Source of the DNA: Escherichia coli
Lineage (GTDB): Bacteria > Pseudomonadota > Gammaproteobacteria > Enterobacterales > Enterobacteriaceae
Direction: 5' to 3' (one strand)
Length of the DNA: 64,000 nt
Assembly (NCBI RefSeq): GCF_022846255.1
Contig: NZ_AP025682.1
The notes below the pieces were generated by a model, which was given only the letters and a program-made list of their open reading frames with translations, searched no databases and was not told the origin of the DNA. This document shows positions 44,708-64,000 of the stretch, piece after piece. A program made the translations under genes and the position numbers. Every line of letters starts with the position of its first letter. Positions within the stretch are counted from its first letter, which is position 1.

Positions 44708-45204
44708 AAAAAAATAACATATGATTTCTTACCAATGCTAAATAGTATACCCCAATCTTTATTAATGCATAGTGATGCTTAATCATTATGTTGCAGTTGA
44801 TCGACACAGGGGGACAAGAGTAGTTGTGTCACTGCCACATCACCCGGCATGCGATTTCACATCGGGATGTTCGAGAAGCATCAATGCTGCGCCCAAGATC
44901 CACCGAAAAGAAACGTGGGAATCACCGGCGGTGGGATTCATTGTCTATGCCCGTGTAGATTAGTGTGGATTTGCTGCACAGATGGTTCCGGTCTGAGAAA
45001 TGGGTAAATTCGTCGTTTACGACGGGAAGCTGCCTACACATGTTATACATCGTCTTCGTGTATCAACATGCTCCTATAAACTCGACTCAACTCACATTTT
45101 TCATTTCACATTGTAAAAACCTTTGACATGCAGAACCTTATTCTGATTCATTATATTCAACATGAAGAACTTTTGTTCCATATACAGAACTTAGTGAGAG
45201 CGAT

Positions 45205-46104
45205 ATGTTGACAGCGTTTAGAGGTATTTTTCCGCCGGTTCCTACTATTGTTGACGCACAGGGGAAACTGGATAAGACGGGTATGGCCCGAATGATTGAC
45301 CATGTAATAGAGAATGGTGCAAACGGAATGCTGATCCTAGGCAGTGGGGGCGAATTCTCACAATTTTCTTCCCAACAACGAAAAGAGATAGCAGCATTTT
45401 GTTTAAATCATGTAGATGGAAGAGTGCCTGTACTGGTGGGGGTTGCTTGTGCCGGGACAGCAGAAACTATTGAGCTGGGACGCCATGCTTATGAGCACGG
45501 AGCTGATGGTGTGCTGGTTGTTAATCCGTATTATGCAAAACTCAGCGATGATGCCCGGTTTATGCATTATAAATCTATTGCTGATACACTTGAAATCCCG
45601 GTGTTTCTCTATAACTTTCCTGATTTAACCGGCCAGGATATTGGACTTGAAGTCATTACCCGGCTGGCCCGGGAAGTTCCTAATATCGTGGGTATCAAAG
45701 ATACAATCGATAACATCAGTCATACCCGAGAAATTATCAACCGTGTACATTCATTTCGTCCGGATTTCATTATATTCAGTGGTTATGACGAATATATGCT
45801 GGACACTCTGTTACTGGGTGGTCATGGCGGTATTCCGGCAACATTCAATTTTGCTCCGGAAATCACACGGGGTATTTATCAGGCTGTTATGGAAAATGAT
45901 CTTGATAAGGCGCGTTATTTCCAACAACAACTGGCAAAATTGTCTCCGTTGTATGCGCTTGAGCAACCTTTCTTTGGGGTGATAAAGACCGCCATCAAAC
46001 TGAGTGGACTGGACATATCTACTGCAGTTATGGCACCGGCTCTTCCGCTCAGTGATGAGAAAATATCCAGAGTAAAATCCATTCTGGAACAAATTCATCA
46101 GTAA
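45205..46104 (+). CDS. DapA/NanA-family class I aldolase/lyase (dihydrodipicolinate synthase-like)
   Basis: 299-aa ORF with family motifs (GSGGEF, NPYY, Schiff-base lysine context IVGIKDT). Confidence 0.8.
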   Translation: MLTAFRGIFPPVPTIVDAQGKLDKTGMARMIDHVIENGANGMLILGSGGEFSQFSSQQRKEIAAFCLNHVDGRVPVLVGVACAGTAETIELGRHAYEHGADGVLVVNPYYAKLSDDARFMHYKSIADTLEIPVFLYNFPDLTGQDIGLEVITRLAREVPNIVGIKDTIDNISHTREIINRVHSFRPDFIIFSGYDEYMLDTLLLGGHGGIPATFNFAPEITRGIYQAVMENDLDKARYFQQQLAKLSPLYALEQPFFGVIKTAIKLSGLDISTAVMAPALPLSDEKISRVKSILEQIHQ

Positions 46105-46120
46105 TCACGAGGGACGCAGG

Positions 46121-47638
46121 ATGAATAACTCTCAGGTACTCAAACTCAATAATCTGGATGATGTTGTGATTGCCATAACAGAGCTTCCTGCCGGAAGCTG
46201 GTTGAAGGCAGAAAATATCGAAACGCGTGACCTTATTCCGGCCGGACACAAAATTGCTCTTCGTGATATTCCTGCTGGTAGTGCGGTTAAGCGCTATGGA
46301 CAAATTATCGGCTTTGCCACTCGTGATATCCGCCAGGGGGAACATATTCATGTTCATAATCTCGGTATGGGAAATTTTGAACGTGATTATGCCTGGGGAA
46401 TAGACAGCCATCTTCCTGAGCGGGATGTCCATCAGGATACTTTTATGGGGATCAGAAGAAAAGACGGGCGAGTGGCAACCCGTAATTTTATCGGTGTGCT
46501 GAGTTCGGTGAACTGTAGCGCAACCGTGGTCAGAGCCATTGAGGATCATTTCCGTACCCGAGGCCTGAGCGATTACCCGAATGTTGATGGTATTGTCGCA
46601 TTGCCTCAGAGCTTCGGCTGCGCCTTTGGCTCTAATACTGAAATGATGAAAGTCATGCGGAGAACGATAGCAGGCTATGCCACTCACGTAAACTTTGCCG
46701 GGATTGTGATAGTGGGACTGGGATGTGAATCATTCCAGATTAAGGACATGATGAATGCCCATGGACTACATGAAAACCCGATGTTTCATACACTGACAAT
46801 TCAGGAAAGTGGCGGAACACGCAACGCTATCGAAAAGGGTATTTCGTTTATTCTTGATATGCTGCCGGAAGCCAACAATGTTAAACGTGAACCTGTTCCA
46901 GTGTCAGAAATTATCCTGGCCCTTGAGTGTGGTGGCTCAGACAGTTACTCAGGAATTTCTGCCAACCCGGCACTCGGTTATGCAGTTGATCGTCTGGTCC
47001 GTCAGGGAGGGACGGCCATTCTGTCCGAAACATCAGAAATCTACGGAGCTGAGCATCTTCTGACACGCCGTGCTATTAATCGTGAAGTGGGAGAAAAGCT
47101 AATCCGCAGGATTAAGTGGTGGGAGGAGTACTGTAAACGTACGGGTAGTGAAATGAATAACAATCCCTCCGCAGGTAATAAAGCGGGAGGGCTGACTACT
47201 GTTCTGGAGAAATCACTGGGTGGAATCGCTAAAGCCGGGACAACCAGCTTAATGGATGTGTATGAATATGCTGAACCTGTAACAGCAAAAGGGCTTGTCT
47301 TTATGGATACCCCCGGGTACGACCCGATGGCGGTAACTGGGCAAATTGCCGGAGGCGCTAATCTACTGTGTTTTACCACGGGTAGGGGATCTGCCTTTGG
47401 AGCAAAACCCACGCCTTGTCTGAAACTGGCGACCAATAATGCATTATGGCAACGACAGCGTGATGACATGGATTTAAACTGTGGCACGATCGTTGATGGT
47501 GAAGAAACGATTGAACAGGTAGGGGAACGTATTTATCAGAGAATTATTGAGCTGGCTTCAGGTAACCGTAGCCGAAGTGAAGAACTTGGGTATGGGAGTC
47601 TGGAATTTGTTCCTTGGATAATGAACTCAATAATGTAA
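46121..47638 (+). CDS. UxaA/GarD-family sugar-acid dehydratase (altronate/galactarate dehydratase-like)
   Basis: 505-aa ORF with a GAGGGA RBS; N-terminal SAF-like domain and C-terminal dehydratase domain by recalled similarity. Confidence 0.7.
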   Translation: MNNSQVLKLNNLDDVVIAITELPAGSWLKAENIETRDLIPAGHKIALRDIPAGSAVKRYGQIIGFATRDIRQGEHIHVHNLGMGNFERDYAWGIDSHLPERDVHQDTFMGIRRKDGRVATRNFIGVLSSVNCSATVVRAIEDHFRTRGLSDYPNVDGIVALPQSFGCAFGSNTEMMKVMRRTIAGYATHVNFAGIVIVGLGCESFQIKDMMNAHGLHENPMFHTLTIQESGGTRNAIEKGISFILDMLPEANNVKREPVPVSEIILALECGGSDSYSGISANPALGYAVDRLVRQGGTAILSETSEIYGAEHLLTRRAINREVGEKLIRRIKWWEEYCKRTGSEMNNNPSAGNKAGGLTTVLEKSLGGIAKAGTTSLMDVYEYAEPVTAKGLVFMDTPGYDPMAVTGQIAGGANLLCFTTGRGSAFGAKPTPCLKLATNNALWQRQRDDMDLNCGTIVDGEETIEQVGERIYQRIIELASGNRSRSEELGYGSLEFVPWIMNSIM

Positions 47639-47705
47639 TAACACAGGGCAGAGTTTATCCTGCCCTGTTGAAGTAAACACCGTTTTAGATAATTAGAGGT
47701 GAATA

Positions 47706-48713
47706 ATGGAACAGAAACCTGTGTTGGGAATTTTTTTAGGTGAAGCTGCCGGTATCGGACCAGAATTGATTGCTAAGGTTGTTGCTGATGGTACTGTCTA
47801 TAAATATTGCAGACCCGTTCTGATTGGTGATGCCCGTGTTCTTGCTCTTGGACAAAAGATTGCGGGTGTTCATTTTCAATGGGATGTAATAAGTGACCCA
47901 TCAGAGGCAGACTGGAGCACAGGAAATGTACCATTACTTGATTTAAAAAATTTCAACCCCGAAAAACTAACTATGGGGACCATTGATACCGATTCAGGTT
48001 ATGCAACCGGGGAATCATTGGTAACCTGTATGTCATTACTCAAATCAGGAAAGATTGATGGTTTTGTTTTTGCTCCATTGAATAAAGAGGCGTTCAAGAA
48101 AGGGGGCTGGGATATTGAAGACGAACATTATCTGTTTGCAGAGCAGTTAGGATGCCTGGATAGACCTCGCGGCCTGTTGAATGTCCTGGATGATCTCTGG
48201 GTTTTCCGTGTGACCGGACATATTCCGTTCAAAGATATTGCCAGCCATATTACTCCAGAAAATGTTAGCCGTTCGATTCAGTTATGCTATGACACACTAC
48301 GTATGGCAGCTATTGAAAATCCGCGAATTGCAGTTGCTGCACTTAATCCCCACGCCGGGGATGGTGGAACCTGCGGCACCGAAGAAATAGACGTGCTCAT
48401 TCCAGTAATTGAAAGTTTTCGAAAGAAAGGAATGGACATGTATGGGCCAGTTCCAGGTGACACCATTTTTATTCATGCGTTTAATCATGAATATGATGCG
48501 GTTGTTACCCTGTTCCATGACCAGGGACAAATTGCTACTAAACTGCATTCCTTTGACGTGGGAATAACTGTTGCCGCAGGACTTCCGTTCGCTATTACAA
48601 CACCAGAACATGGCACTGCATTTGATATTGCAGGTAAGGGGATCGCAAAAACAATGGCTACAGAGAGGGCTATTGCCGTGGCGGCCAGAATGGCTTCTAC
48701 AACACATAAATAA
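47706..48713 (+). CDS. PdxA-family NAD-dependent dehydrogenase/decarboxylase (4-hydroxythreonine-4-phosphate dehydrogenase-like)
   Basis: 335-aa ORF; PdxA-like motifs (NPHAGDGG, HDQG). Confidence 0.7.
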   Translation: MEQKPVLGIFLGEAAGIGPELIAKVVADGTVYKYCRPVLIGDARVLALGQKIAGVHFQWDVISDPSEADWSTGNVPLLDLKNFNPEKLTMGTIDTDSGYATGESLVTCMSLLKSGKIDGFVFAPLNKEAFKKGGWDIEDEHYLFAEQLGCLDRPRGLLNVLDDLWVFRVTGHIPFKDIASHITPENVSRSIQLCYDTLRMAAIENPRIAVAALNPHAGDGGTCGTEEIDVLIPVIESFRKKGMDMYGPVPGDTIFIHAFNHEYDAVVTLFHDQGQIATKLHSFDVGITVAAGLPFAITTPEHGTAFDIAGKGIAKTMATERAIAVAARMASTTHK

Positions 48714-48983
48714 AAATTCATAATAGCAGATAATATAATGTCTAATCTATACAGATAGATGTGAATATTATCTGCGTTATAATAAACTGTATAAGGCTAT
48801 TATAAATAACAGTCGGTGTTTTGATAAGTTGCTGGTTGTTATATCTTTAAAACGAGTTGATGATATTTATTTACTAGATATTCAGTGCGATTATAGCAGT
48901 ACTGTATCGCAAGAAAATAGCAGTGCTGGGGAAGTAGAAAGAATAAATTGCGATTTGCATGCTCATAGATAAGGATAGATCTC

Positions 48984-50342
48984 ATGTATTCAGAATCATT
49001 TGTGATGATAAGTGGGCTTGTTGCAATAGTTATACTTATCATCTTGATCACCCGATTTAAGCTTCATCCTTTTTTTTCATTGCTTATATCGTCTGTATTT
49101 TTGGGAATTGTGAACAATATTGGAGTGGCGAAAAGTGTAGATATATTTACGCACGGGTTTGGTAGTCAACTGTCTGTCACGGGGGTAGTTATCGGCTTAG
49201 GCGCAATGTTGGGGGGGCTATTGGTACAGTCTGGAGGAGGGGACAAAATAGCCGATATTATTATTGGGTCTAGAAAAATTGTTTGGATGCCTCTGTGTAT
49301 TGGTATAGTTTCGTTAATCATCGGTCTACCTAACTTGTTTGAAGTTACTTTTGTACTGATGGTACCCCTTGTGTTCTCTATTACCAAACGTTTGGGGTTA
49401 CCTGTTCTCAGAGTTGCACTCCCAATGTCTGCAGGATTAATGACAGCTCATGCGTTATTACCGCCTGGTCCGGCAACTATTATCGCTGCTACGGCTTATG
49501 GTGCCAGCATCGGAGAAACTACGCTTTATGGGGTGATTATTAGTATACCTGTTCTACTCTCAGGAGCTTATCTTTTCCCAAAAATAATGCACAAACATCT
49601 TAACGTGGGAGAACCTTTGGCACTGAATGAAACTGAACATAGACGGGGAAATAACGAACGTCAATTATATCGCCAACCATCGCTGACTGTCGCTTTGATA
49701 ACAGTTATGATCGCCCCTTGTCTGATGATTGTTGGGACTATTGGACTTGACTTTTTGCCAAAAACAGGTGTGGTCACAGAGGTATTCCAGGCACTAGGCA
49801 ATCCAGTAATAACTCTTGGACTTGCTCTGGTTTATGCCATGATATTTCTGGGACGGGGAGTGGGTTTTAGTAATGAAGAAATCCTGTCTATCAGTAAGAA
49901 AAGTATTGTGCCTATTGTTGGTTTGTTGCTAATTATCGGTGGAGGCGGTGGATTAAAAAACATACTAACAGCAATTGGTCTAAGTGATATTATCAGTAAC
50001 TTTGCTACGGATTGGTCTATTCCTCCGCTATTATTTGCATGGCTGGTGGCAGCTATTTTCCGCATTGCGCTTGGCTCTGGAACGGTGGCGGTCTCAGCTT
50101 CAGGAGGAATCGTTGCCGCGTTACTTACAGCACATCCAGAAACTAACGCAGCTCTATTGGTACTTTCAACTACGACTGGGGCAATGATTTTTTCACATGT
50201 CAGTGATGGGGCATTTTGGTTATTCAAAGAATACTTTGGACTTAGCGTACCACAAACTATTCGCACATGGAGTTATTTAGTCACGATACAGTCCATTGTC
50301 GGGCTTATAGGTGTATTGGTTCTAGGCGCTATTCTCAGTTAG
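48984..50342 (+). CDS. GntP-family sugar-acid permease
   Basis: 452-aa hydrophobic ORF with GntP-like topology and motifs. Confidence 0.7.
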   Translation: MYSESFVMISGLVAIVILIILITRFKLHPFFSLLISSVFLGIVNNIGVAKSVDIFTHGFGSQLSVTGVVIGLGAMLGGLLVQSGGGDKIADIIIGSRKIVWMPLCIGIVSLIIGLPNLFEVTFVLMVPLVFSITKRLGLPVLRVALPMSAGLMTAHALLPPGPATIIAATAYGASIGETTLYGVIISIPVLLSGAYLFPKIMHKHLNVGEPLALNETEHRRGNNERQLYRQPSLTVALITVMIAPCLMIVGTIGLDFLPKTGVVTEVFQALGNPVITLGLALVYAMIFLGRGVGFSNEEILSISKKSIVPIVGLLLIIGGGGGLKNILTAIGLSDIISNFATDWSIPPLLFAWLVAAIFRIALGSGTVAVSASGGIVAALLTAHPETNAALLVLSTTTGAMIFSHVSDGAFWLFKEYFGLSVPQTIRTWSYLVTIQSIVGLIGVLVLGAILS

Positions 50343-50427
50343 TGGTTCTGTATTCAATATATAAGAAAGCAATATCAAGTTTTAACATCTTTAATTTAAT
50401 AGATATAGTATTAAAGGAGAGTAATTT

Positions 50428-51693
50428 ATGTCCTCCAATGAGAAAGCAACAAATATAAGATGGAGAATATTTTTTGTACTTTTTCTTCTTGTTGTTGTCA
50501 GTATGATTGATCGAGCCTCAATATCTATAGCTATGCCTACTATCGCTAAAGATTTGGGATTAAGCGATACGATGCAGGGATTAATACTAAGCGGTTTTTT
50601 CTGGACTTATGCTTGTATGCAAATACCCGGTGGGTTTCTGGCCGATAAATTTGGGGCAAGAATTGTACTGACATGTTCTGCCATTATTTGGGGAACTGCA
50701 GAAGCCTTATTAGGATTATGCCCAACAGGTTTCGCTTTACTTGCTGCTAATCTATTGCTTGGTGCAAGTGAAGCACCTGTGTTTCCCTCAGGCGCTAGAC
50801 TTAATGCAATTTGGTTAAATAAAAATGAAAGAGCTCGTGGAGCAACATTAATGGATGCCGGAGGTCCATTTGGGGCTGCAATTGGTGGAATATTAGTAGC
50901 TGAAATGATGCTTTATTTTGCATCGTGGCGGGTTACATTCATTATCTGTGGTGTTGCGGCTATCACTCTGGGGTTAATAGCTTACTGGATTATTCGCGAC
51001 AAACCTGAAGATTCACCAAATGTAAATGATAAAGAATTAAGTATTATTAATCTCGATCGTGTTGAGCAACATATAGTAGCAGAAAACAATGAGCCATTAT
51101 TAAAGGTTATTCCTCTACGTTCTTTTATTGGTATGCTTTTAGGTCGTTGTTCATGGGCAATGTGTTTCTTTGGTTTATTAACCTGGGGACCAGGATATCT
51201 TACACGAGCATTAAATCTGGATTTAAAAGCTGTTGGTTTTGCCACAATGATTATATTTTGCGCAGGTGGTTGTGGTAGTCTTTGTGGCGGATGGCTGGCA
51301 GATAAACTCGCAAGTAAAGGATTTGGGCGAGCTAGAACGTGTAAATTTCTATTAACTGTATCAGGTATCTGTACACTAATATCATTTGCTTTATTACCAA
51401 GCATACCAGATGTAAAAACATCAATTATTCTGCTGTCCTGCGCCGCGTTTGTTTTGATGTGGGGTAGTATGTACTGGACGTTTCCTCCTTTATTAGCTCC
51501 CCGTTCCCGTGTAGCTACTGTCGGGGGCATGATGAATATGGCTGGAAGTGTTGGAGGTATTTGCATTCCACTATTGGTAGGACTTATTTTGGATGTGACG
51601 AACTCATTCAATCCTGTACTCTACTTTTTTGCTGGTTGTGCTGTAATATTTATTTTAATGACTAATATTATCGATTTACGACACGTGCGATAG
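50428..51693 (+). CDS. MFS transporter (anionic sugar/sugar-acid type)
   Basis: 421-aa ORF with an AAGGAGAG RBS; 12 TM segments. Confidence 0.75.
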   Translation: MSSNEKATNIRWRIFFVLFLLVVVSMIDRASISIAMPTIAKDLGLSDTMQGLILSGFFWTYACMQIPGGFLADKFGARIVLTCSAIIWGTAEALLGLCPTGFALLAANLLLGASEAPVFPSGARLNAIWLNKNERARGATLMDAGGPFGAAIGGILVAEMMLYFASWRVTFIICGVAAITLGLIAYWIIRDKPEDSPNVNDKELSIINLDRVEQHIVAENNEPLLKVIPLRSFIGMLLGRCSWAMCFFGLLTWGPGYLTRALNLDLKAVGFATMIIFCAGGCGSLCGGWLADKLASKGFGRARTCKFLLTVSGICTLISFALLPSIPDVKTSIILLSCAAFVLMWGSMYWTFPPLLAPRSRVATVGGMMNMAGSVGGICIPLLVGLILDVTNSFNPVLYFFAGCAVIFILMTNIIDLRHVR

Positions 51694-51702
51694 GAGATAA
51701 AC

Positions 51703-52653
51703 ATGAACATCAAGCCACTAAATTTATATGATGGCCCTGTAATTGATGCGCATCATCACTTCTGGGATCCGATAGAAAATGATCATCCTTGGCTAAAGCC
51801 GGATGTTTTAATTCCTTTTAGATATGGTGATTATACGGCGATTAAGAAAAAATATTATCCTGAAGATTATTTTGCAGATGTAGGTGATATTAATGTCGTT
51901 GAAACCTGTTATATGGAGACTGAATGGAATCCAGCGGATCCATGTGGTGAAAGCGATTTCATTACATCAGTAGCAAAAATGACAGGTTATCCAAATGCTG
52001 TTGTCGGACAGGCTTGGTTAAATCATGATGATATAGATTCTGTGTTGAAGATGCAGAGTTCATATGAGTTGATGCGAAGCATCAGGCATAAGCCAGAGGG
52101 GCCTGATAAACCAGAGGATGTTGGATCGTATACAACTCTGATGAGTGATGAAAGATGGCGATATGGGTATTCATTACTTTCAAAATACAATCTAATGTTT
52201 GATCTGCAAACCCAGTGGTGGAATTTGCATGAAGCTGTAAAACTGGCAAATGATTTCCCAGACACAGTAATAATCCTTAATCATACAGGGCTCCCTGCAC
52301 AACGTTCTGTTGAAGGGTTGGCCGGGTGGCATTCAGCAATGGCTTCTTTGGCTGAATGTGAAAATGTGATGGTTAAAATATCGGGTATAGGTTTAAAAGG
52401 GATTCCATGGACAGTGGAGAATAATCTATGGATAATATCTGAAACGTTATCAATGTTTGGTCCTGACAGGGTCATGTTTGCAAGTAATTTCCCCGTGGAC
52501 AGTCTTTGTGGCAGTTTCAGTGATATATTTCATGGCTTTATGACTGTTTGCGAGATGAAAGGGTATTCACATGCGGCTCAGCGGAAAATGTTTCATGACA
52601 ATTGTAAGAGAATCTATCGAACAATCCCACCAAGTGAATTGAAGGAAGTATAG
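51703..52653 (+). CDS. Amidohydrolase-2 family metal-dependent hydrolase (lactonase/decarboxylase-like TIM barrel)
   Basis: 316-aa ORF with an AGGAGA RBS; N-terminal HHHFWD metal-binding motif. Confidence 0.65.
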   Translation: MNIKPLNLYDGPVIDAHHHFWDPIENDHPWLKPDVLIPFRYGDYTAIKKKYYPEDYFADVGDINVVETCYMETEWNPADPCGESDFITSVAKMTGYPNAVVGQAWLNHDDIDSVLKMQSSYELMRSIRHKPEGPDKPEDVGSYTTLMSDERWRYGYSLLSKYNLMFDLQTQWWNLHEAVKLANDFPDTVIILNHTGLPAQRSVEGLAGWHSAMASLAECENVMVKISGIGLKGIPWTVENNLWIISETLSMFGPDRVMFASNFPVDSLCGSFSDIFHGFMTVCEMKGYSHAAQRKMFHDNCKRIYRTIPPSELKEV

Positions 52654-52805
52654 CTGATAATCATATTTAATGATATCTGAGGTTTATTATTGTATAACTC
52701 ATGGAAATTCATGATTCGTAAATGTGAGTTATATCTATATGCTGTTGAATAGTGATACGCAAGAAGCACATAAAAATATAACATAATAATACTCCGTAAA
52801 CATTT

Positions 52806-52832
52806 CCCCCTTTTAAAAGAGGGGGAGTTTTT
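52806..52832 (+). terminator. Rho-independent terminator after the sugar-acid operon
   Basis: Hairpin CCCCCTTTT/AAAGAGGGGG followed by TTTTT, about 150 bp after the amidohydrolase stop. Confidence 0.5.
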
Positions 52833-52972
52833 ATTGTCATTGCTATACCATAGCTTGGAGAGGATTATTGGAATGGTAGAAGAGTCATTATGAGATAATA
52901 TTATTATCTGAGCTGGCCCCCTGAAATACCAGACAGTAGATGTATCTTAAAATAAGAGATAGGCTTGGATAT

Positions 52973-53368
52973 ATGTCTAACACTAGTTCTAATTTTGAGA
53001 TGGCTGGCGTTTTGTTAGGAAAAGAGGTGCGTAAACGTAAAACACCTCAGGAAAAAATCGCAATTATTCAACAGACTATGGAGCCGGGCATGATGGTGTC
53101 CCACGTGGCGCGTTTGCATGGAATTCAGCCCAGTCTGTTGTTTAAGTGGAAGAAACAATACCAGGAAGGAAGCCTCACTGCTGTGGCTGCCGGTGAAGAC
53201 GTTGTTCCTGCTTCTGAACTGACCGCTGCAATAAAGCAGATTAATCAGCTTCAGCGTTTACTGGGTAAGAAAACCATGGAAGTTGAGATCCTCAAAGAAG
53301 CGGTGGAGTATGCACAATCGCGAAAATGGATAGCGCATGTGCCCTTGTTACCTTCGGACAAGGAATAG
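52973..53368 (+). CDS. IS2-group transposase orfA (InsC-like HTH protein)
   Basis: [50 protein letters not shown]... parallels IS2 InsC. Confidence 0.7.
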
Positions 53369-54207
53369 CCCCGGTAAGCCGTGTTCTGGGCGTGTCACGT
53401 GCGCAGTTAACATTACGGATGAAGGCATCTGATAACAAGCCAGATAAACGGCGCCAGAGGCGCGATGAGGCTGCGGATGCAGAAGTCTTATCGCGCATCC
53501 TGGATATCATTGGCGATATGCCAGCATACGGGTATCGCCGTGTCTGGGCGATACTCAGGCGGCAGTCCCGAAATGAAGGACTACCGTTCGTGAATGCAAA
53601 GCGTGTTTACCGGATAATGAGCGAAAATAGTCTGTTGTTGTTACATGACAAACCATCACGACGGCAGCGGGAACATAAAGGCCGAATATCGGTGAAGGAA
53701 AGCGACCAGCGTTGGTGTTCCGATGGCTTTGAGTTCGGTTGCGATGATGGCGAAAAACTGCGTGTTACGTTCGTCCTGGACTGTTGCGATCGTGAAGCCA
53801 TAGACTGGGTCGCAAGCACGGGAGGTTACGATAAAGCGACAGTGCAGGATGTGATGTTAGGAGCGATAGAAAAACGCTTTGGCGATAAAGTACCGGAACA
53901 GTCCATCCAGTGGCTGACAGATAACGGTTCAGCGTACAGAGCGCATGAAACACGGCAGTTCGCCAGAGAGCTGAATCTGAAGCCCTGCACAACAGCAATC
54001 AGTAGCCCTCAGAGTAATGGAATGGCAGAACGGTTCGTGAAAACGATGAAGGAAGACTACATCGCGTTCATGCCGAAACCGAATGTAAGAACGGCATTGC
54101 ATAACCTTGCAGTGGCGATCGAGCATTACAATGAAAACCATCCGCATAGTGCGTTGGGTTATCGCTCTCCGCGAGAATATCGACGTCAGCGGGTAATGTT
54201 AACTTAA
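53326..54207 (+). CDS. IS2-group transposase orfB (InsD-like DDE domain)
   Basis: 293-aa ORF overlapping orfA in the -1 frame, as in IS3-family programmed frameshifting. Confidence 0.75.
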
Positions 54208-54311
54208 GATACAACCCCTGTCTGGAAATAAGGGGGCAAGAACACCGTCTCAGATCTGTTTTCAATGAAAACAGATCATTCTGGAACTACTCGTCCCAGT
54301 TACTTGAAGCG

Positions 54312-55397
54312 ATGTCCATTCTTCGTCCGAACGAAAATCTTGCAGCAGCTCTCAGCGATGATTCAGAGTTCAGCAATAGCATGCAGTTCAGGTTAATCCT
54401 GGCAAAGACTGTTGATGCAGGAGCCCCGGTTCCAGCGGATCTGGCTCTGACGTGGGTGACAAACCATATTGAATACTCATTACGAACCCCCGCCCGCCGC
54501 TGTGCGAAAGAATTTGCTGCACTATTTAAACGGCGTTACACCCTTAAATACGGTGAAGGGATGGTAGTGAAGCCGAATAAAGCGCGTCTGCGTTTAGATT
54601 ACACGCCTGCAAGTCCCAGTTTGAGAGGTATTCGGCTTCCTGTTCCTGACTTGCCTGATCCAAGTGCATTGAAAGGCCCTGTTCAGAAGCTTATGACTCT
54701 TGCTGATATATGCACAGATGAACTGGATGCTTACAGTCGTTACCTTGGTAGAAAAGGCACTTCAGCAAATGATACCGCTGCAATTTTGTTGCTGCCTTCA
54801 GAAATCGTTAACGAAAGCGCAGATAAATTATTAAGTGCATTCAAACGCTGGGCTGATGACGCGATCCTCAGTAAGGGGGGAGTAGTTTCAGTTGCTGACT
54901 TCTGGTCACACATGAATGCTACCTGTCCGGCAAAGATCAACAAAAAAGAGGCCGACTTGATGCAGGCCTTTGCACAGAAAATGGGGTACTGCCTGGCTCC
55001 TGACCCCTATTACCACCACGTAAAAGCAAATGTCGATGGTGTTCTTGTTTTATTCCCTGCTGGTGAAAGTGGCCGCTTCTCTCCTTCTCCTGAATTTATC
55101 ACAGCTGTATTGACGCTCCGATTAGGTTCGGTAGTCGCCTTGATTGACAATTCTTTCGATCAAGCCGAACAGAAAGTGCTTGAGAATGCCATCAACAACA
55201 ATGTCAGCTTCAGCGATGATGAAAAGCGCTCTCTGCACGCATATTTAACGTGGCAGCTTCATACCCCGGCGAATATGACGGGAATGAAAAGCCGGATTGA
55301 ATTACTCGGTGCAGCGGAAAAATCAGCTGTGGGTAAGGTTATCGTTAGTGTCGCTTGCTCTGACGGCAGAATTACGCCTGCCGAAATCAAACTGTAG
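54312..55397 (+). pseudogene. IS-flanked gene fragment, possibly a TerB-like domain protein, 3'-truncated by the IS911 insertion
   Basis: 361-aa ORF lying exactly between the IS2-group right end and the IS911 left end. Its stop codon TAG lies within the first bases of the IS911 terminus. The TerB-like call rests only on the weak pattern DNSFDQAEQKVLENAINNN...DDEKRSL. Confidence 0.35.
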
Positions 55398-55464
55398 TGG
55401 CACACTGAATTTGGCCACCTGAACAGAGGTGATATGCTCACCTCAGAACAACACAGGTGCTCCA

Positions 55465-56633
<1,169 letters not shown>

Positions 56634-57056
56634 CCACTACAAATATCATTATATTGGAATAATTATAAAACTGAACAAAATGGTCAATGTAATCTGGTTA
56701 ATTTATAAATATTTACATTGCGTGATGATATTTAATTCCAGTGTTAAGTAATGTCACATGCCTATTATTGGTTACTACTTTGTAGGTGTTTTGGTTCGGC
56801 GTTAATATCATTGGTCATAATCACCTGTGAAAGTTTATTCTTGAAATGTTATAGGTATATTACTTGCAATTAAAAATGAGAAATTTATTATTATTGTGTT
56901 TTGCAAATATAATAATTAAAAATTTATTATAAATTATGATTAGAACTGACAATATAAAAGAATAATAAAACTCAATATGAAAATAATTATCATCTGGTAT
57001 GATACTTTTGCTGTTGATTACAGGAATAAAGTGTCAGAATAATATTGTTATTGGGT

Positions 57057-57084
57057 AAAAAAAGCCTCCACTATATGTGGAGGC
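57057..57084 (-). terminator. Strong Rho-independent terminator-like hairpin on the - strand in AT-rich DNA downstream of the integrase gene
   Basis: Perfect 8-bp inverted repeat GCCTCCAC/GTGGAGGC with loop TATAT, followed by a 7-T tract on the - strand. Confidence 0.45.
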
Positions 57085-57758
57085 AAACCCTTAGATAGTT
57101 CTATTGAGGCAAGTATGTTATAAATCTGCCTTATCTTTTATAGCATATAAAGATATGTATGCTATATTGTTTTTTGAAGAAATTTTTCCAGAAATTACAG
57201 TAATACAAGAAATATTAACCGGTGTGATTTTTGGATGTTTAATAAGTACAGTGTAGTGTACTTATATTTTTGTAATAAAGATGAACGCGTCCTTTAGATA
57301 AACTGAAAAATATTAAGCATGTCTCATGTGGTTTTCTGAATCAAAACTCTTTTCAGTCTTTGGTTTTTTGTTAAAAACAGGTTTATTGCAAGGGTGTTGT
57401 TGTGAAATGTGTTTTGGTGTCGTTGTGATTTTATGGTGATAATGTGAATTTTTATCCTTTCAAGATGGCTCCCTGGACGTTAAATACAGTGGAAATTTAT
57501 ATTAAGATATAAATATAACTATTGCGTTATTTAAATTATTGTCTATTACAGCTCCAGTTAATAGAGCCTGAAGTAATTTCTTAGTATTTCATCATAAGCG
57601 TTTATCTATCGTCTCTTTCTAAATTAACCGGTCGTATTACAAGGTGCTGAATCTGATTAAGGAATGATACTTAGGGGATTATGGCTGACTTAATAATTAG
57701 ATAACTGATAAATGACTATCAGGGGGATATCGTTAAGTCAGCCTTTAAAATCAAGCGA

Positions 57759-58949
57759 TTATATAGCTGGTGACTCTTTTCGAAGAGCATCAAGGTAGTC
57801 AGCGTACCATTGCATCATTTCTCGTCTTCCTTCAAGGTAACGAGCATGGTTGTATGTACCACGAATGCTGTTTTTGTCCGTATGTGCAAGTTGCATTTCA
57901 ATCCATGCACTATTGAATCCTTGCTCGTGTAGAACAGTACTCATTGTATGACGAAATCCATGCCCGGTAGCTTTTTTGTCATAGCCAATCTTCTTCAAAA
58001 CCATATTGACGCTTGCATCGCTGATAGGCCTGTTAACATCATTTCTTCCGGCAAAGATGTATCTGTATCTTCCAGTCAGTTCTTTGAGGATTTGCAGAGA
58101 CTGGATTGCCTGATCTGACAGAGGGACGATATGCTCCTTCCTCATTTTCATCCGGGTCGGAGGAACTTCCCATATCTTTTGGGTAAAATCGATCTCACAC
58201 CATTCCCCCATACGTAATTCTACTGTTCTCAGCCCTGTGAGCATCAACAATTTTGTAGCTTCACGGGTTACAATACTGCCGGTGTAGTTTTCGAGTTTGT
58301 ATAAAAACTCTGGTAGTTCAGGAGGAAGCAGGAAAGGGTAATGTGTTCGCTTATAGCTTTTCATTGCTATAACCAGATCAGAAGCTGGATTGTATCGTGC
58401 CCGACCTGTAACAATGGCATACCGAAACACTTCACCACATCGTTGGCGAACTTTATTAGCTAGCTCGCAGGCTCCTCGGCTTTCGATACGCTGAAGAACT
58501 GCGAGAAGTTCAAGAGGTTCGATTTCACTAATGGGTCTGTTTCCAATGTAGGGAAACACATTATTTTTGAATGCTCTGTCGACATAATCAGCGTAGCTGG
58601 CAGACCAGCCTGAAACTTTTGCGTTGTACCACTCGGTGGCGATTGCGGCAAAAGTTCTTCCTTCGGAAAGGTTTTTCTCAAGATTTTCAGCTTTCTTGAC
58701 TTCACCGGGATCTTTACCATCGGCATGTATTTTCTTGGCTTCATCCCGACGTTTGCGAGCTTCAGCCAATGTAATAGTTGGATAGGTGCCAAATGATAGT
58801 TTCTTTTCCTTCCCCGCATAGTGGTACTTCATTCGCCAGTACTTTGAGCCGTTAGGATTGACCTGAAGGTAGAGCCCACCACCATCGGCAATCTTATAAA
58901 TTTTATCTTTGGGTTTGGCTGTTTCAACTTGTCGAGCTGTCAGTGGCAT
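57759..58949 (-). CDS. P4-type tyrosine integrase
   Basis: Start placed at MPLTARQVETAKPKDKIYKIADGGGLYLQV (typical P4-Int N-terminus); C-terminal catalytic motifs HGFRHT...Y. Confidence 0.8.
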   Translation of the reverse strand: MPLTARQVETAKPKDKIYKIADGGGLYLQVNPNGSKYWRMKYHYAGKEKKLSFGTYPTITLAEARKRRDEAKKIHADGKDPGEVKKAENLEKNLSEGRTFAAIATEWYNAKVSGWSASYADYVDRAFKNNVFPYIGNRPISEIEPLELLAVLQRIESRGACELANKVRQRCGEVFRYAIVTGRARYNPASDLVIAMKSYKRTHYPFLLPPELPEFLYKLENYTGSIVTREATKLLMLTGLRTVELRMGEWCEIDFTQKIWEVPPTRMKMRKEHIVPLSDQAIQSLQILKELTGRYRYIFAGRNDVNRPISDASVNMVLKKIGYDKKATGHGFRHTMSTVLHEQGFNSAWIEMQLAHTDKNSIRGTYNHARYLEGRREMMQWYADYLDALRKESPAI

Positions 58950-59076
58950 CTGGGGGCCTCGCAATAGATTGACCAAGATGTGCCCCTAAATAGGCCCCCA
59001 AATGTGACTTGATTTACGTTCCCCTGAGGAGAATTAAGGCGACTATTTGAGTAACATAAGTAAGGGTATGTGCTGA

Positions 59077-59640
59077 TTATAAAGGCTTTTTGTGGGGTAT
59101 GGTAGATTTCAGGAGAGGTGTGCATGGTGTCCCCTGCAGAATGATGTAAACACCTGCTGCGAAGGTAATAGATTGCATGATGGAGAACATGAACCAGTTT
59201 TTACCACCACTAAGCTCTTTCACCACATCTGCACGCGCAAACAGGCACGTCACCAGGAAAATTATGCTCATGGTAAAAGAGATAGCAACCGGCGTGTCGC
59301 GCAAGAACAGCAGACTTTTCGGCACATTCATGTCTTCAGTCGAGTGGTCTTTATTACCAAACTTGCTGCCGATGAAACCGGCCAATACATAATATAATGT
59401 TGAGAAGTGGCCGATGGCAACGTCATCAGAACCGGTCACTTTCTTCATGTACGGATGCGCAATAGCCGGGAAAAAGACCATTGCCACGCCAACAACCAAA
59501 GAGCCAACGGCTATAAGCGTAATGCCGGTCATGCCTGCTGTTGCCAGAATTACCGCTACCATCATCGACATAAACAACGTGTGATGACCGGTCAGGAAGA
59601 TAAATTTCCACGGTGTGAAACGGGCAATCAGAATGTTGAT
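59077..59640 (-). pseudogene. Internal fragment of a PTS ascorbate-family (SgaT/UlaA-like) EIIC gene
   Basis: Minus-strand translation ...FLTGHHTLF...IGH...STEDMNVPKSLLFLRDTPVAISFTMSIIFLV...ILQG parallels the central region of UlaA-type IIC proteins; no N-terminus, and it diverges before the C-terminal half. Confidence 0.4.
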
Positions 59641-59642
59641 AA

Positions 59643-60014
59643 CCATCAGAACCGCTGGACTATCCCTCGGAAACGTTAGCTGAGATCCGCCATACCGGCG
59701 CACGAGCCGGGCTGGCATTTAATCCGGCGACCCCAATCGACGCCTGGCAATATCTAGCGTCTGAGCTGGACGGCGTGATGGTGATGACCTGTGAGCCCGA
59801 TGGGCACGGACAGCGGTTTATTCCCTCTATGTGCGAGAAAATCCAAAAAGTACGCACGGCTTTTCCTCAGACCGAGTGCTGGGCCGACGGTGGAATTACG
59901 CTGGCGGCAGCACAGCAACTGGCTGCAGCCGGGGGGCAGCATATGGTGATTGGGCGCGTCTTGTTCTTTTCATCTGACTATCGCGCGACCTTAGCTCAAT
60001 TCGCCACCCTGTAA
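59643..60014 (+). pseudogene. 3' fragment of a ribulose-phosphate 3-epimerase-family gene (SgcE/Rpe-like)
   Basis: In-frame translation ...TLAEIRHTGARAGLAFNPATPIDAWQYLASELDGVMVMTCEPDGHGQRFIPSMCEKIQKVR...ECWADGGITLAAAQQLAAAGGQHMVIGRVLF matches the C-terminal half of Rpe (GLVFNPATP ... GFGGQSFIP ... VDGG ... AAGAD). A TAA at 59640-59642 closes the frame upstream. Confidence 0.55.
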
Positions 60015-60030
60015 GAGGAGATTGTTTCTG

Positions 60031-60813
60031 ATGAGCCAACAGAGACCTGACCGTATCAAACAGATGCTGCACTACCTGTGGCAACATCGTCACCTCTCCA
60101 CACAGCAGGCCATGGAGCTTTTTGGCTATGCGGAGGCGACTGTCCGTCGTGATTTTCAGTATATTGCCAACCAGTACCCAGGAATGATCCGCGGTCACGG
60201 TTGTCTCGACTTCGACGACAGTACTGACGACAAAGAGTACGTTTTCGATGTGAAACGTACATTGCAATCTGTGGCGAAGAGAGAAATAGCCGCCCTTGCC
60301 CGAACGATGATCAAAGATGGCGACTGCTTTTTTCTCGACTCCGGCTCAACCTGCCTCGAACTGGCGAAATGCCTGGCCGATGCACGGGTGAAGGTCTCCT
60401 GCAACGACATTAAAATCGCCAATGAGCTGGGCTGTTTTCCCCATGTGGAAAGCTATATTATCGGTGGACTGATTCGCCCGGGTTATTTTTCGGTAGGAGA
60501 GAGTCTGGCGCTGGAGATGATCAATGCCTTTTCCGTAGAACGTGCGTTTATCTCCTGCGATGCGCTGTCGCTGGAGACGGGGATCACCAATGCCACCATG
60601 TTTGAGGTCCGGGTGAAAACACGGATTATTCAACGCTCGCGTGAAGTTATTCTCATGGCCGAACACTCAAAATTTGATGCCGTTGAGCCGCATGCTGTAG
60701 CAACACTCTCATGTATTAAAACGATCATTAGTGACAGCGGGTTACCTGAGACTATTGCACAGCGTTATCAGCGAGCCGGATGTCAGTTGTTTTTACCTCA
60801 TTCAATAAAGTGA
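60031..60813 (+). CDS. DeoR-family transcriptional regulator (SgcR-like)
   Basis: GAGGAG RBS before ATG 60031; N-terminal HTH and C-terminal DeoR sugar-binding domain; sits between the epimerase fragment and the yjhI-like gene as sgcR does in KpLE2. Confidence 0.7.
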   Translation: MSQQRPDRIKQMLHYLWQHRHLSTQQAMELFGYAEATVRRDFQYIANQYPGMIRGHGCLDFDDSTDDKEYVFDVKRTLQSVAKREIAALARTMIKDGDCFFLDSGSTCLELAKCLADARVKVSCNDIKIANELGCFPHVESYIIGGLIRPGYFSVGESLALEMINAFSVERAFISCDALSLETGITNATMFEVRVKTRIIQRSREVILMAEHSKFDAVEPHAVATLSCIKTIISDSGLPETIAQRYQRAGCQLFLPHSIK

Positions 60814-61115
60814 TAGGTAAGTTCGTTCGAGAGGGATTTCAAGCAAAAACAATCAATGGCACCCAATAGAAAATATTGGCGATGCGCTCGAACGAATAAA
60901 GAAGCCCTATGCGCAATCCACACGCTACGATGTTGCAACAACACTCCATCTACTTTTTATTCTCATTCACTAAATGTGGCTGTTCTGGATTCATTATTCA
61001 AAGTGTGTACAAGATCACATTTAATCACTTCATTACGGTTCAGCATGCTGAACAAAGCATATTTTCCACTATGTAATGCCGATACCATTTATTCCATGAG
61101 CAAGGAGGAGCCATT

Positions 61116-61904
61116 ATGGTTCGCAAAGGGTGTAATTCATTAGTCCGTGCTGAAAAAATATTAACCCACATTGCATGGGTTGGTATGGCAAGTTATATGG
61201 AGTTATTAAATAAATTTCAGTACCCAAAAAGCAGCCTGCTTAATTTATTGAATGTAATGGTGGAGTGTGGTTTCTTAATTAAAAACAAAAACGGCTACTA
61301 TTCACTGGGAATAAAAAACTACGAATTGGGTTGTCAGGCGTTACACCGCCAAAATATATTTGAGGTGACTAAGCGGCCAATGCAGGAGTTGTCGCTGAAA
61401 AGTGGACTGGTTTGTCATCTTGGGGCGATGGAGAGCATTTCGGCTATTTATCTCGACAAGATCGAAAGTCCGGACTCTGTACCGACGAGCAAAAGCTGGA
61501 TTGGCAAAAAACTTGAGTTGCATATTACCGCGTTGGGTAAGGCATTATTAGCCTGGAAGACACGAGAAGAATTAGATTATTTTTTAGAAGCACTCACGTT
61601 AACTCCGCATACGCGCAATACATTTACCGATAAAAAATCATTTCTGGAAGAATTACAAAAAACACGCCTTCGGGGATGGGCCATAGACAACGAAGAATCA
61701 ACCTATGGTGCGGTATGTTTAAGTATGCCGGTATTCAATATGTATAACAGAGTTAACTATGCAATCTCACTTTCTGGCGATCCGGTAATTTATTCAGGAA
61801 ATAAGATAGACAGCTATCTGGAGTTGCTCCGGAAATGCACAGGGCAAATATCATATGGGCTGGGATACAGAAACGAAAATGAGCATTTACGAAAAGGAAA
61901 CTGA
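61116..61904 (+). CDS. yjhI: IclR-family regulator (YjhI/XynR-like)
   Basis: 262-aa ORF with an AAGGAGGAG RBS, directly upstream of yjhH/yjhG-like genes. Confidence 0.65.
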
Positions 61905-61908
61905 GGTA

Positions 61909-62814
61909 ATGAAAAAATTCAGCGGCATTATTCCACCGGTATCCAGCACGTTTCATCGTGACGGAACCCTTGATAAAAAGGCAATGCGCGAAGTTGCCGA
62001 CTTCCTGATTAATAAAGGGGTTGACGGGCTGTTTTATCTGGGTACCGGTGGTGAATTTAGCCAAATGAATACAGCCCAGCGCATGGCGCTCGCCGAAGAA
62101 GCTGTAACCATTGTCGACGGGCGAGTGCCGGTATTGATTGGCATCGGTTCCCCTTCCACTGACGAAGCGGTCAAACTGGCGCAGCATGCGCAAGCCTGCG
62201 GCGCTGATGGTATCGTCGCCATCAACCCCTACTACTGGAAAGTCGCCCCACGAAATCTTGACGACTATTACCAGCAGATCGCCCGTAGTGTCACCCTACC
62301 GGTGATCCTGTACAACTTTCCGGATCTGACGGGTCAGGACTTAACCCCGGAAATCGTGACGCGTCTGGCTCTGCAAAACGAGAATATCGTTGGCATCAAA
62401 GACACCATCGACAGCGTTGGTCACTTGCGTACGATGATCAACACAGTTAAGTCAGTACGCCCGTCGTTTTCGGTATTCTGCGGTTACGATGATCATTTGC
62501 TGAATACGATGCTGCTGGGCGGCGACGGTGCGATAACCGCCAGCGCTAATTTTGCTCCGGAACTCTCCGTCGGCATCTACCGCGCCTGGCGTGAAGGCGA
62601 TCTGGCGACTGCCGCGACGCTGAATAAAAAACTACTACAACTGCCCGCTATTTACGCCCTCGAAACACCGTTTGTCTCACTGATCAAATACAGCATGCAG
62701 TGTGTCGGGCTGCCTGTAGAGACATATTGCTTACCACCGATTCTTGAAGTTTCAGAAGAAGCCAAAGAAAAAGTCCGCGCACTGCTGTCCGCGCAAGGTA
62801 TTTTATCGGACTGA
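61909..62814 (+). CDS. yjhH: DapA-family 2-dehydro-3-deoxy-D-pentonate aldolase (YjhH-like)
   Basis: Start at [50 protein letters not shown], recalled as near-identical to K-12 YjhH. Confidence 0.8.
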
Positions 62815-62824
62815 GGAGAGGATC

Positions 62825-64000
62825 ATGTCTGTTCGCCATATTTTTGCTGACGAAAGTCGCGATATCTACACCGTCAGAACCCACGCAGATGGCCCTGACG
62901 GAGAACTGCCTCTGACGGCGGAAATGCTCATCAACCGCCCGAGTGGGGATCTGTTCGGGATGACCATGAATGCCGGAATGGGCTGGTCTCCGGACGAGCT
63001 GGATCGGGACTGTATTCTACTGCTCAGCACACTGGGAGGGGTACGCGGGGCAGACGGTAAGCCCATCGCGCTGGCGTTGCATCAGGGCCACTACGAGCTG
63101 GATATCCAGATGAAAGCGGCTGCGGAGGTAATCAAAGCGAACCGTGTCCTGCCCTATGCCGTCTATGTTTCCGATCCGTGCGACGGACGAACTCAGGGTA
63201 CGACGGGTATGTTTGACTCGCTACCGTACCGTAATGACGCCGCCATGGTGATGCGTCGTCTTATCCGCTCTCTGCCCGATGCAAAAGCCGTCATAGGCGT
63301 GGCGAGCTGCGACAAGGGACTTCCGGCCACCATGATGGCGCTTGCCGCGCAGCATAACAAAGCGACGGTGCTGGTGCCCGGTGGCGCGACTCTACCCGCA
63401 GGGGATGGGGAAGATAACGGCAAGGTGCAGACCATCGGTGCCCGCTTCGCCAATGGCGAGTTATCACTACATGATGCCCGCCGTGCGGGTTGTAAAGCCT
63501 GTGCCTCCTCCGGCGGCGGCTGCCAATTTCTGGGCACCGCCGGGACATCACAGGTAGTAGCTGAAGGATTAGGACTGGCTATCCCGCACTCAGCACTGGC
63601 CCCATCCGGCGAACCGGTGTGGCAGGAGATAGCCAGAGCCTCCGCGAAGGCGGCGTTGAACTTATGTAAACAAGGCATCACCACCCGGGAAATACTTACC
63701 GATAAAGCGATTGAGAATGCGATGACGGTCCATGCGGCGTTCGGTGGTTCAACAAATCTGTTGCTGCATATTCCGGCGATTGCCCATCAGGCCGGCTGCC
63801 ATATTCCAACCGTTGACGACTGGATCCGCATCAACAAGCGGGTGCCCCGACTGGTAAGCGTACTCCCCAATGGTCCGGTTTATCACCCGACAGTGAATGC
63901 CTTCATGGCGGGAGGTGTGCCGGAGGTGATGCTGCATCTTCGTAGTCTGGGATTGCTGCATGAAGACGTGATGACGGTCACCGGCAGCACGCTGAAAGAA
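62825..64000 (+). CDS. yjhG: D-xylonate dehydratase (IlvD/EDD family, YjhG-like); partial, 3' end beyond the window
   Basis: ATG at 62825 with open frame to the window end (392 codons). N-terminus [61 protein letters not shown] recalled as YjhG. Confidence 0.75.

Follow-up and report, generated by a model that had tools for sequence, protein, structure and literature searches.

Among the closest described relatives of the locus analysed here is the yjhIHG(F) set of Escherichia coli K-12 KpLE2. The enzyme and regulator functions of this system come from work in K-12, where YjhI is an auto-activated activator of yjhIHG that responds to KDX (2-keto-3-deoxy-D-xylonate), the native promoter of yjhI is found no further than 199 bp from the ATG, and the chromosomal operon is poorly expressed (PMC13279387). 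A comparable set, xynR-yagEFGH of the CP4-6 prophage, likewise combines an IlvD/Edd dehydratase and a DHDPS-family aldolase with a KDX-responsive IclR-type regulator. However, its enzymes are paralogues of the yjh enzymes at 59-70% amino acid identity, the regulators share 33%, XynR is a repressor whereas YjhI is an activator, and the transporter family differs too. In the ExPEC strain ATCC 25922, the leuX-fim segment reads sgcXBCQAER-yjhIHGF-yjhU/mtnR-permease-ald2-mtnA-mtnK, and indeed most E. coli carry the sgcE'-sgcR-yjhIHGF-yjhU/mtnR-DHAP shunt block in the leuX-fim region. YjhU corresponds to MtnR, which represses the DHAP shunt; the shunt has been stated to be 'invariably' in the leuX island (PMC12632272). 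For K-12, genes, pathway and regulation have all been characterised before, and tRNA-linked islands of mosaic make-up are textbook knowledge for ExPEC.

We analysed a 64,000-nucleotide stretch of E. coli DNA (the window), the last part of which (60031-64000, plus strand) holds sgcR, yjhI, yjhH and yjhG up to codon 392, with zero internal stops. We are confident, if short of certain, that this segment carries the known D-xylonate operon yjhI-yjhH-yjhG in intact form, with yjhF next to it beyond the window; that it belongs to a block of about 13 kb in a composite island, most likely at pheV; that the left edge of this block was remodelled twice; and that its yjhG is recombinant. The features are:

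57759-58976, minus strand: P4-type tyrosine integrase of the argW-adjacent kind; context, outside the xylonate unit
59125-59139, minus strand: last 15 nt of the tRNA-Arg gene argW (att core remnant), from a three-way comparison
59132-59646, minus strand: piece of a gene for a PTS EIIC-GAT protein (ascorbate-type IIC), joined tail-to-head to sgcE'
59647-60014, plus strand: 3' fragment of sgcE, about the C-terminal 122 codons and the stop; here the block in common with the leuX-fim region begins on the left
60031-60813, plus strand: sgcR, ATG start, 260 aa, DeoR/GlpR-family regulator
60814-61115, plus strand: sgcR-yjhI spacer, holding the putative yjhI promoter region
61037-61054, in this spacer: palindrome GGTTCAGCATGCTGAACA, about 62 bp upstream of yjhI
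61116-61904, plus strand: yjhI, 262 aa, IclR-family regulator
61909-62814, plus strand: yjhH, 301 aa, class I (DHDPS/NAL-family) KDX aldolase
62825 to beyond 64000, plus strand: yjhG, predicted IlvD/Edd-family D-xylonate dehydratase of 655 codons, of which 1-392 fall in the window
62712-64000: left part of a recombinant patch, comprising the last ~100 bp of yjhH and yjhG; the whole patch measures ~2.2 kb

A sequence-only reading had assigned these genes to the K-12 yjh set and described them as near-identical to it. Alignment confirms the orthology. Genes and spacers run collinearly with those of K-12 yjh, yjhI and yjhH being 4 bp apart and yjhH and yjhG 10 bp, and yjhI lies directly upstream and in the same orientation. 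Identity to K-12 is 96.7% (nucleotide) and 98.5% (amino acid) for SgcR, 97.8% and 98.1% for YjhI, 97.1% and 96.7-97.3% for YjhH, and 85.9% and 95.9% for the N-terminal part of YjhG, so that near-identity holds for the proteins (96-98.5%) but not for the DNA of yjhG (86%). Of 5,426 complete E. coli genomes, 1,674 gave a megablast match to 60031-64000 in which these four genes are annotated, sgcR being named as such in every genome matched; the top match reached 97.2%, and K-12 MG1655 matched at 93.8% over 100% of the query.

Could the genes instead be the CP4-6 set (xynR-yagE-yagF), or another DHDPS/IlvD pair? YagE and YagF do have fold and function in common with YjhH and YjhG, and YagE structures are the top solved-structure matches: YjhH, which carries the Pfam domain DHDPS, aligns end to end with 3n2x and 2v8z (E = 2.8e-111, or about 1e-111). 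However, the window proteins are only 33-70% identical to XynR, YagE and YagF (33% for YjhI against XynR, 59.4% for YjhH against YagE, 69.9% for YjhG against YagF), set against the 96-98.5% that they share with the yjh and SgcR proteins, and the collinear order and spacers speak for yjh as well. A yagE/yagF identity was rejected on these protein identities, and we give this alternative virtually no credence.

The yjh assignment is accompanied by family features in each protein. YjhI matches IclR-family models, and SgcR matches DeoR-family NCBIfam models, at scores below their equivalog cut-offs only. YjhH shows the motifs GTGGE at residue 45, YNFP at 135 and GIKDT, with the Schiff-base lysine, at 162. 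As the sequence-only reading had noted, the dehydratase runs off the window, with 392 of its 655 codons inside. A public contig, L009, matches the last 8.3 kb of the window (55713-64000) at 100% identity and holds the complete 655-aa protein, whose first 392 residues are the window translation; it scores 1202.8 bits on TIGR03432 (yjhG_yagF), with a cut-off of 808.15. The window part of YjhG contains the cysteine motifs DPCDG (117), SCDKG (161) and GGCQF (231), and the serine motif RFSG (535) lies in the off-window C-terminal part on L009; in IlvD/Edd enzymes these would supply the Fe-S cluster cysteines and the catalytic serine. As it is 96% identical to the K-12 enzyme, which has been characterised (PMC13279387), this YjhG is predicted to act as a D-xylonate dehydratase.

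Beyond the window, L009 continues with the rest of yjhG, then yjhF (GntP permease) 3' of it, which was the gene to be looked for there, and then yjhU (mtnR) and the mtnK-mtnA-aldolase "DHAP shunt" operon. The moved unit is larger than had been proposed: it starts at sgcE', takes in yjhU and reaches mtnK, some 13 kb in all. Genes, order, spacing and the putative intergenic promoter region of yjhIHG are as in K-12, where yjhF and yjhU also come next, but K-12 lacks the DHAP-shunt operon after yjhU because of an IS1 there. From sgcE' to mtnK the block is syntenic with the ATCC 25922 leuX-fim segment and 96-99% identical to it outside yjhG, and at least 80% of the 10.9-kb downstream part is covered in 1,086 complete genomes.

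The low identity of the yjhG DNA to K-12 is due to the 2.2-kb recombinant patch. In 100-bp steps, identity to K-12 falls from 0.98-0.99 to 0.81-0.91 at ~62712 and returns to 1.00 at the window equivalent of ~64912, about 900 bp past the window, so that the patch spans the final ~100 bp of yjhH, the whole of yjhG and the spacer before yjhF. The genes flanking it are 97-99% identical to K-12. The allele is rare, occurring in 22 of the 1,618 complete E. coli genomes that carry yjhG, and its identity to Citrobacter, about 90%, exceeds the 86% that it shares with other E. coli. A search of genome contigs with YjhG gave outgroups only, among them Citrobacter, Kosakonia and Klebsiella indica, and no Escherichia record. 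We posit that a divergent allele replaced yjhG through homologous recombination. The existence of two sharply different yjhG alleles within E. coli, 14% apart in DNA and 4% in protein, is relevant to metabolic engineering with YjhG.

By orthology with the K-12 system, YjhF would bring in D-xylonate as a GntP-family permease, and YjhH would act as a Schiff-base aldolase, splitting KDX into pyruvate and glycolaldehyde; KDX would also activate the IclR-type YjhI, which would switch on its own operon, probably via a conserved palindrome upstream of yjhI. The sgcR-yjhI spacer is 97.4% identical to K-12, and none of its eight substitutions falls in the palindrome at 61037-61054. When 14 sequences lying upstream of yjhI are compared (Escherichia, Citrobacter, Kosakonia, Klebsiella indica, Lelliottia and Phytobacter), the palindrome is nearly invariant and its flanks diverge, which makes it a ready candidate for the YjhI operator on which xylonate/KDX biosensors rely. 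A ribosome-binding site, AAGGAGG, lies immediately 5' of the yjhI ATG. A scan for the sigma-70 consensus returned sites at chance level (6 found, 5.8 expected). Terminator-like matches fell mostly within coding sequence and were set aside.

It is improbable that the operon is a decaying, non-functional relic carried as a passive passenger of the island. The adjoining sgc operon has indeed been destroyed, the surroundings are rich in pseudogenes and IS fragments, and weak expression of the chromosomal yjh operon in K-12 (PMC13279387) could be read in the same sense. However, all four reading frames are intact, the catalytic motifs, ribosome-binding site and upstream palindrome are all kept, and the 392 yjhG codons in the window differ from K-12 by 141 synonymous and only 16 non-synonymous changes, which argues for strong purifying selection on yjhG. 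An intact operon remains the reading that we prefer.

The same cannot be said of the neighbouring sgc genes. The sequence-only reading had counted sgcR as a member of the xylonate module; it belongs instead to the sgc operon, which is cut within sgcE at 59647. Collinearity with K-12 begins at this position, equivalent to 14617 of the K-12 locus (L002) and inside sgcE (14352-14984). Since the sgc PTS operon is missing except for the 3' piece of sgcE, sgcR is an intact but orphaned regulator of a truncated operon. In strain SCEC020001 the sgcE fragment is annotated as 'epimerase, missing N-terminus'. The IIC gene fragment fused to it is 99.8% identical to SCEC020001, and in contigs of identical sequence Pfam EIIC-GAT is matched on an ORF of 213 aa. 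Against K-12 sgcC the fragment gives no blastn match, nor is there any counterpart in the K-12 locus. Left of the fragment, window positions 56642-59142 are 99.6% identical to the integrase and tRNA-Arg loci that adjoin yfdC in many E. coli genomes. A three-way comparison of the window, an argW locus (L004) and SCEC020001 (L001) places the crossover between the argW remnant and the IIC fragment inside a shared 8 bp, CCCTGCAG, at 59132-59139. The missing half of the IIC fragment, sought elsewhere in the window as a test of simple insertion of an argW-type element, was absent.

These two junctions suggest two steps of remodelling: sgcE' would first have been joined to the PTS IIC fragment, and an argW-type integrase segment would then have been joined at the 8-bp att-core match. 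Both could in principle be assembly chimeras arising at repeats, considering that IS fragments are plentiful in the window and that one junction lies in an 8-bp repeat. Yet the order argW-integrase/IIC'/sgcE' recurs at 99.95-100% identity in assemblies of independent origin, three in number (Logan DRR322657, Logan SRR26932012 and NCBI GCA_023881025.1), and the IIC'/sgcE' junction, rare as it is, occurs in 11 closed genomes out of 5,426; the probability that we attach to an artefact is accordingly slight in the extreme. The eleven are SCEC020001, GTEN_97 and nine others, in which the junction is identical (99.5%). Their tRNA-Phe island variant has the same yjhG type as the window (97.9%) and the same downstream genes, but in the window the IIC fragment is cut further, at 59132, by the argW-type integrase segment. 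The window also differs in yjhH, most of which (62212-62711) is K-12-like, whereas SCEC020001 is there only 84-92% identical to the window.

Taking these edges as genuine, we may ask how they arose. Perhaps, although we hold this as a doubtful suggestion, the join at 59132-59139, which lies next to an intact argW-type integrase, records recombination by an integrase at a pseudo-att site within a different tRNA island; together with the gene-sized replacement of yjhG, it would then form a small natural record of module travel among the leuX, pheU, pheV and argW islands. If true, this would be a site-specific route for building 'island-in-island' composites, one that trims and relocates cargo such as the xylonate/DHAP-shunt segment.

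Where, then, does the block lie? The sequence-only reading had called it KpLE2-like and noted that the K-12 genes are associated with leuX. The latter is correct, as the K-12 yjh set sits between leuX and fimB; the former stands for gene content and fails for the locus, where no tRNA is present, collinearity with K-12 starts only at 59647, and the flanks consist of kps genes, IS elements and an argW-type integrase. Indeed, K-12 KpLE2 is linked to leuX, intB, fec and fim, links that the window block lacks; with KpLE2 taken as the leuX/intB-fimB site bearing fec, nan and a complete sgc operon, the block falls outside it, since its sgc operon is cut inside sgcE. ARAGORN, run on the whole window, found no complete tRNA, tRNA-Phe included. 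The window does hold kps region 1, 47 kb away on the left side of the block, and a CP4-type distal island end, together 98.8% identical to urinary isolates (strain 82.0311/82.0312).

Could the block nonetheless be in its normal leuX-fim location, with nothing moved? Its synteny and 96-99% identity with the ExPEC leuX-fim region outside yjhG would be expected in that case. On the other hand, sgcXBCQA, nan and fim are absent, collinearity stops inside sgcE, the left flank consists of the PTS IIC fragment, the argW-type integrase, IS elements and, at 47 kb, kps region 1, and the genomes that share the junction place the block in tRNA-Phe islands; we consider an unmoved block very unlikely. In contrast to ATCC 25922, the block here follows kps in what is probably a tRNA-Phe-type island, lacks its left part and carries a divergent yjhG. 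Among the relatives with the truncated variant, SCEC020001, the closest closed one, has the block 42 kb from pheV-yqgA, and GTEN_97 has it at pheU; strain 10 carries an untruncated sgc-yjh copy with window-type yjhG in its pheU island. The window's kps genes and these same-junction relatives make a pheV location, to the right of the kps genes in a composite island, the most likely one; the occurrence of the variant at pheU too, the argW type of the nearest integrase and the absence of a tRNA-Phe from the window count against it.

The exact arrangement of the window was found in none of 5,426 closed E. coli genomes (megablast of 44000-64000 and 56600-60031), and an exact-protein look-up intended to extend the 100%-identical contig returned related lineages only, at 96.3-99.7% identity. 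In strain Santai, tandem islands lie rightward of the module, with no tRNA within 49 kb. The proposal that the module occurs in different tRNA-linked islands is borne out, with leuX-fim in K-12 and ATCC 25922, pheU in strain 10 and GTEN_97, and pheV in SCEC020001, and the segment is an ordinary instance of gene blocks passing between islands. Neither the xylonate operon nor the adjoining DHAP-shunt operon is limited to the leuX island, which qualifies the 'invariably' of PMC12632272; the significance is modest, and goes little beyond bookkeeping. The integrase nearest to the block is of the argW type, 99.6% identical to those beside argW, and not of the pheV type.

The sequence-only reading correctly identified 60031-64000 as a known system, the xylonate module sgcR-yjhI-yjhH-yjhG: the ORF list for 56000-64000 shows four reading frames, all on the + strand, at the position it proposed, and these four genes are the annotated features under every megablast match of the segment. 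Such a match exists in 1,674 of 5,426 complete E. coli genomes; K-12 MG1655 aligns at 93.8% identity with 100% query coverage, whilst the best genome is SCEC020001 (97.2%). An ungapped comparison with K-12, gene by gene, gives the following identities, and no internal stops were found in sgcR, yjhI, yjhH or the in-window part of yjhG.

Genes of the module and their identity to K-12
60031-60813, + strand, sgcR: 96.7% nt, 98.5% aa
302 bp, sgcR-yjhI spacer: 97.4% nt
61116-61904, + strand, yjhI: 97.8% nt, 98.1% aa
61909-62814, + strand, yjhH: 97.1% nt, 96.7% aa
62825-64000, + strand, yjhG (392 in-window codons): 85.9% nt, 95.9% aa

Low identity to K-12 would have pointed to a yagE/yagF-like set; the CP4-6 paralogues of K-12, taken for comparison, were rejected at 59% (YagE to YjhH), 70% (YagF to YjhG) and 33% (XynR to YjhI). 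Full-length YjhG scores 1202.8 bits against TIGR03432, the 'YjhG/YagF family D-xylonate dehydratase' (cut-off 808 bits), and keeps the cysteine motifs DPCDG, SCDKG and GGCQF. The PDB copy searched held no YjhG or YagF structure, the nearest solved relatives there being dihydroxy-acid dehydratases; crystal structures of YagE align end to end with YjhH, which retains the DHDPS/NAL aldolase motifs GTGGE, YNFP and GIKDT. sgcR lies outside the yjhIHG unit. Its product is the DeoR-type regulator that belongs to the sgc PTS operon, of which only the final 368 bp of sgcE (59647-60014) remain here.

In K-12, yjhIHG is under an auto-activated activator, YjhI, with KDX (2-keto-3-deoxy-D-xylonate) as effector, and the 199 bp next to the yjhI ATG contain the native promoter (PMC13279387). 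By orthology to the system described there, D-xylonate would be taken up by YjhF (an assumption), YjhH would cut KDX into pyruvate and glycolaldehyde, and YjhI would switch on yjhIHG in the same auto-activated, KDX-responsive manner. Window and K-12 differ at only three positions in these 199 bp, which include a palindrome, GGTTCAGCATGCTGAACA (61037-61054), about 62 bp upstream of the start codon. When the regions upstream of yjhI are aligned for 14 sequences from six enterobacterial genera, this palindrome is almost invariant whilst the surrounding sequence diverges, and we propose it as a candidate YjhI operator.

The dehydratase was expected to run past the window, with yjhF possibly following, and both prove to be the case. 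A look-up of proteins identical to the window's YjhH returned 23 contigs, amongst them L009 (Logan DRR322657), 100% identical to 55713-64000 over 8,288 bp, and L010 and L011 (the latter NCBI GCA_023881025.1), 99.95% identical from about 56325. Within these contigs, a complete yjhG (655 aa) is followed by yjhF (449-aa GntP permease), then yjhU (328-aa SorC/DeoR-type regulator), a GRP-type sugar transporter, a class II aldolase, MtnA and MtnK. yjhU is not a xylonate gene; published work has identified its product as MtnR, which represses the neighbouring DHAP-shunt operon (PMC12632272). This regulator and its operon (permease, ald2, mtnA, mtnK; L009 10883-16074, just past the window's right end) accompany the xylonate genes into tRNA-Phe islands, at pheV in SCEC020001 and at pheU in GTEN_97.

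Identity to K-12 is 0.98-1.00 up to about 62711, falls to 0.81-0.91, and is back at 1.00 at the window-equivalent position of ~64912 (L009 coordinate + 55712 for positions past 64000). This patch of ~2.2 kb spans the end of yjhH, the whole of yjhG and the yjhG-yjhF spacer, and diverges from K-12 by 14% in DNA and 4% in protein, within flanks that are 97-99% identical overall (99% for yjhF and yjhU). yjhG is dimorphic in E. coli: amongst 1,618 closed genomes with the gene, 1,596 carry the K-12 type, which is 86% identical to the window, whilst the window type is found in 22, half of them (11) at 97.9% identity and the other 11 at 96.5%. The nearest outgroup to the window type is a set of Citrobacter amalonaticus alleles (about 90%), and that to the K-12 type, at 94.7%, is another Citrobacter, On2M. 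In the in-window part of yjhG, 141 of the codon differences between window and K-12 are synonymous and 16 non-synonymous, which indicates purifying selection. In SCEC020001 the left breakpoint of the patch lies at about 62212, unlike that of the window (~62712), and the patch has therefore been re-shuffled among lineages.

The association of these genes with leuX in K-12 is borne out, as they lie ~26 kb from it, between leuX/intB and fimB. The leuX-fim region of ExPEC ATCC 25922 reads fim-nan-sgcXBCQAER-yjhIHGF-yjhU-permease-ald2-mtnA-mtnK, and the 10.9 kb from yjhH past mtnK are at least 80% covered in 1,086 complete genomes. The window differs on its left side, where collinearity with K-12 begins only at 59647, inside sgcE, and where the following features adjoin.

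Features left of the module
57759-58976, - strand, P4-type integrase, in a segment 99.6% identical to loci adjoining argW-yfdC
59125-59139, last 15 nt of tRNA-Arg argW, left of the IIC fragment
59132-59646, - strand, fragment of a PTS EIIC-GAT gene (IIC'), left of the sgcE fragment (sgcE')

Of 5,426 closed genomes, only 11 (0.2%) have the IIC'/sgcE' junction and none the window's exact arrangement, which is, however, present in at least three draft assemblies; this positional variant is uncommon. SCEC020001 carries the block with the junction 42 kb from pheV-yqgA, and GTEN_97 20 kb from pheU-dicD, whilst strain 10 has an untruncated sgc-yjhIHGF in a pheU island, with the same yjhG type as the window. 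The presence of the module at leuX, pheU and pheV supports the proposed shuffling between tRNA-linked islands, and the variant is an ordinary outcome of recombination amongst them. A pheV location is likely for the window's copy, as kps lies on the same stretch and the orientation matches; ARAGORN found no tRNA in the window. Kps region 1 and a typical distal island end lie farther left in the window, at 98.8% identity to urinary isolates.

A three-way comparison places the crossover between the argW-type segment and the IIC fragment inside CCCTGCAG, 8 bp common to the argW 3' end (att core) and the fragment. An integrase acting at a pseudo-att site would account for this, as would joining through microhomology; pseudo-att recombination may have built a composite island here. 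The window lacks the IIC fragment's other half, so this is no simple insertion of the argW-type segment. IS elements lie farther left of the integrase. An IS3-family transposase orfB (55794-56633), 86.6% identical to an ISEc52-like copy in K-12 KpLE2, stops exactly at the start of the argW-type segment (56642), another mosaic junction.

Elsewhere in the window, 44001-52665 holds a second sugar-acid-type cluster, encoding a UxaA-family/D-arabinonate dehydratase, an MFS transporter, a PdxA-family dehydrogenase, an amidohydrolase and another DHDPS-family protein. Many E. coli strains have a corresponding cluster, to which this one is only about 86.6% identical in DNA; it is thus unusually divergent, the rest of the window being 98-99% E. 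coli. Adjoining kps region 1 (4487-12425, - strand), the very AT-rich 1-4056 (29% GC; ORFs of 1,117 and 209 aa) presumably corresponds to capsule region 2, which is serotype-specific.
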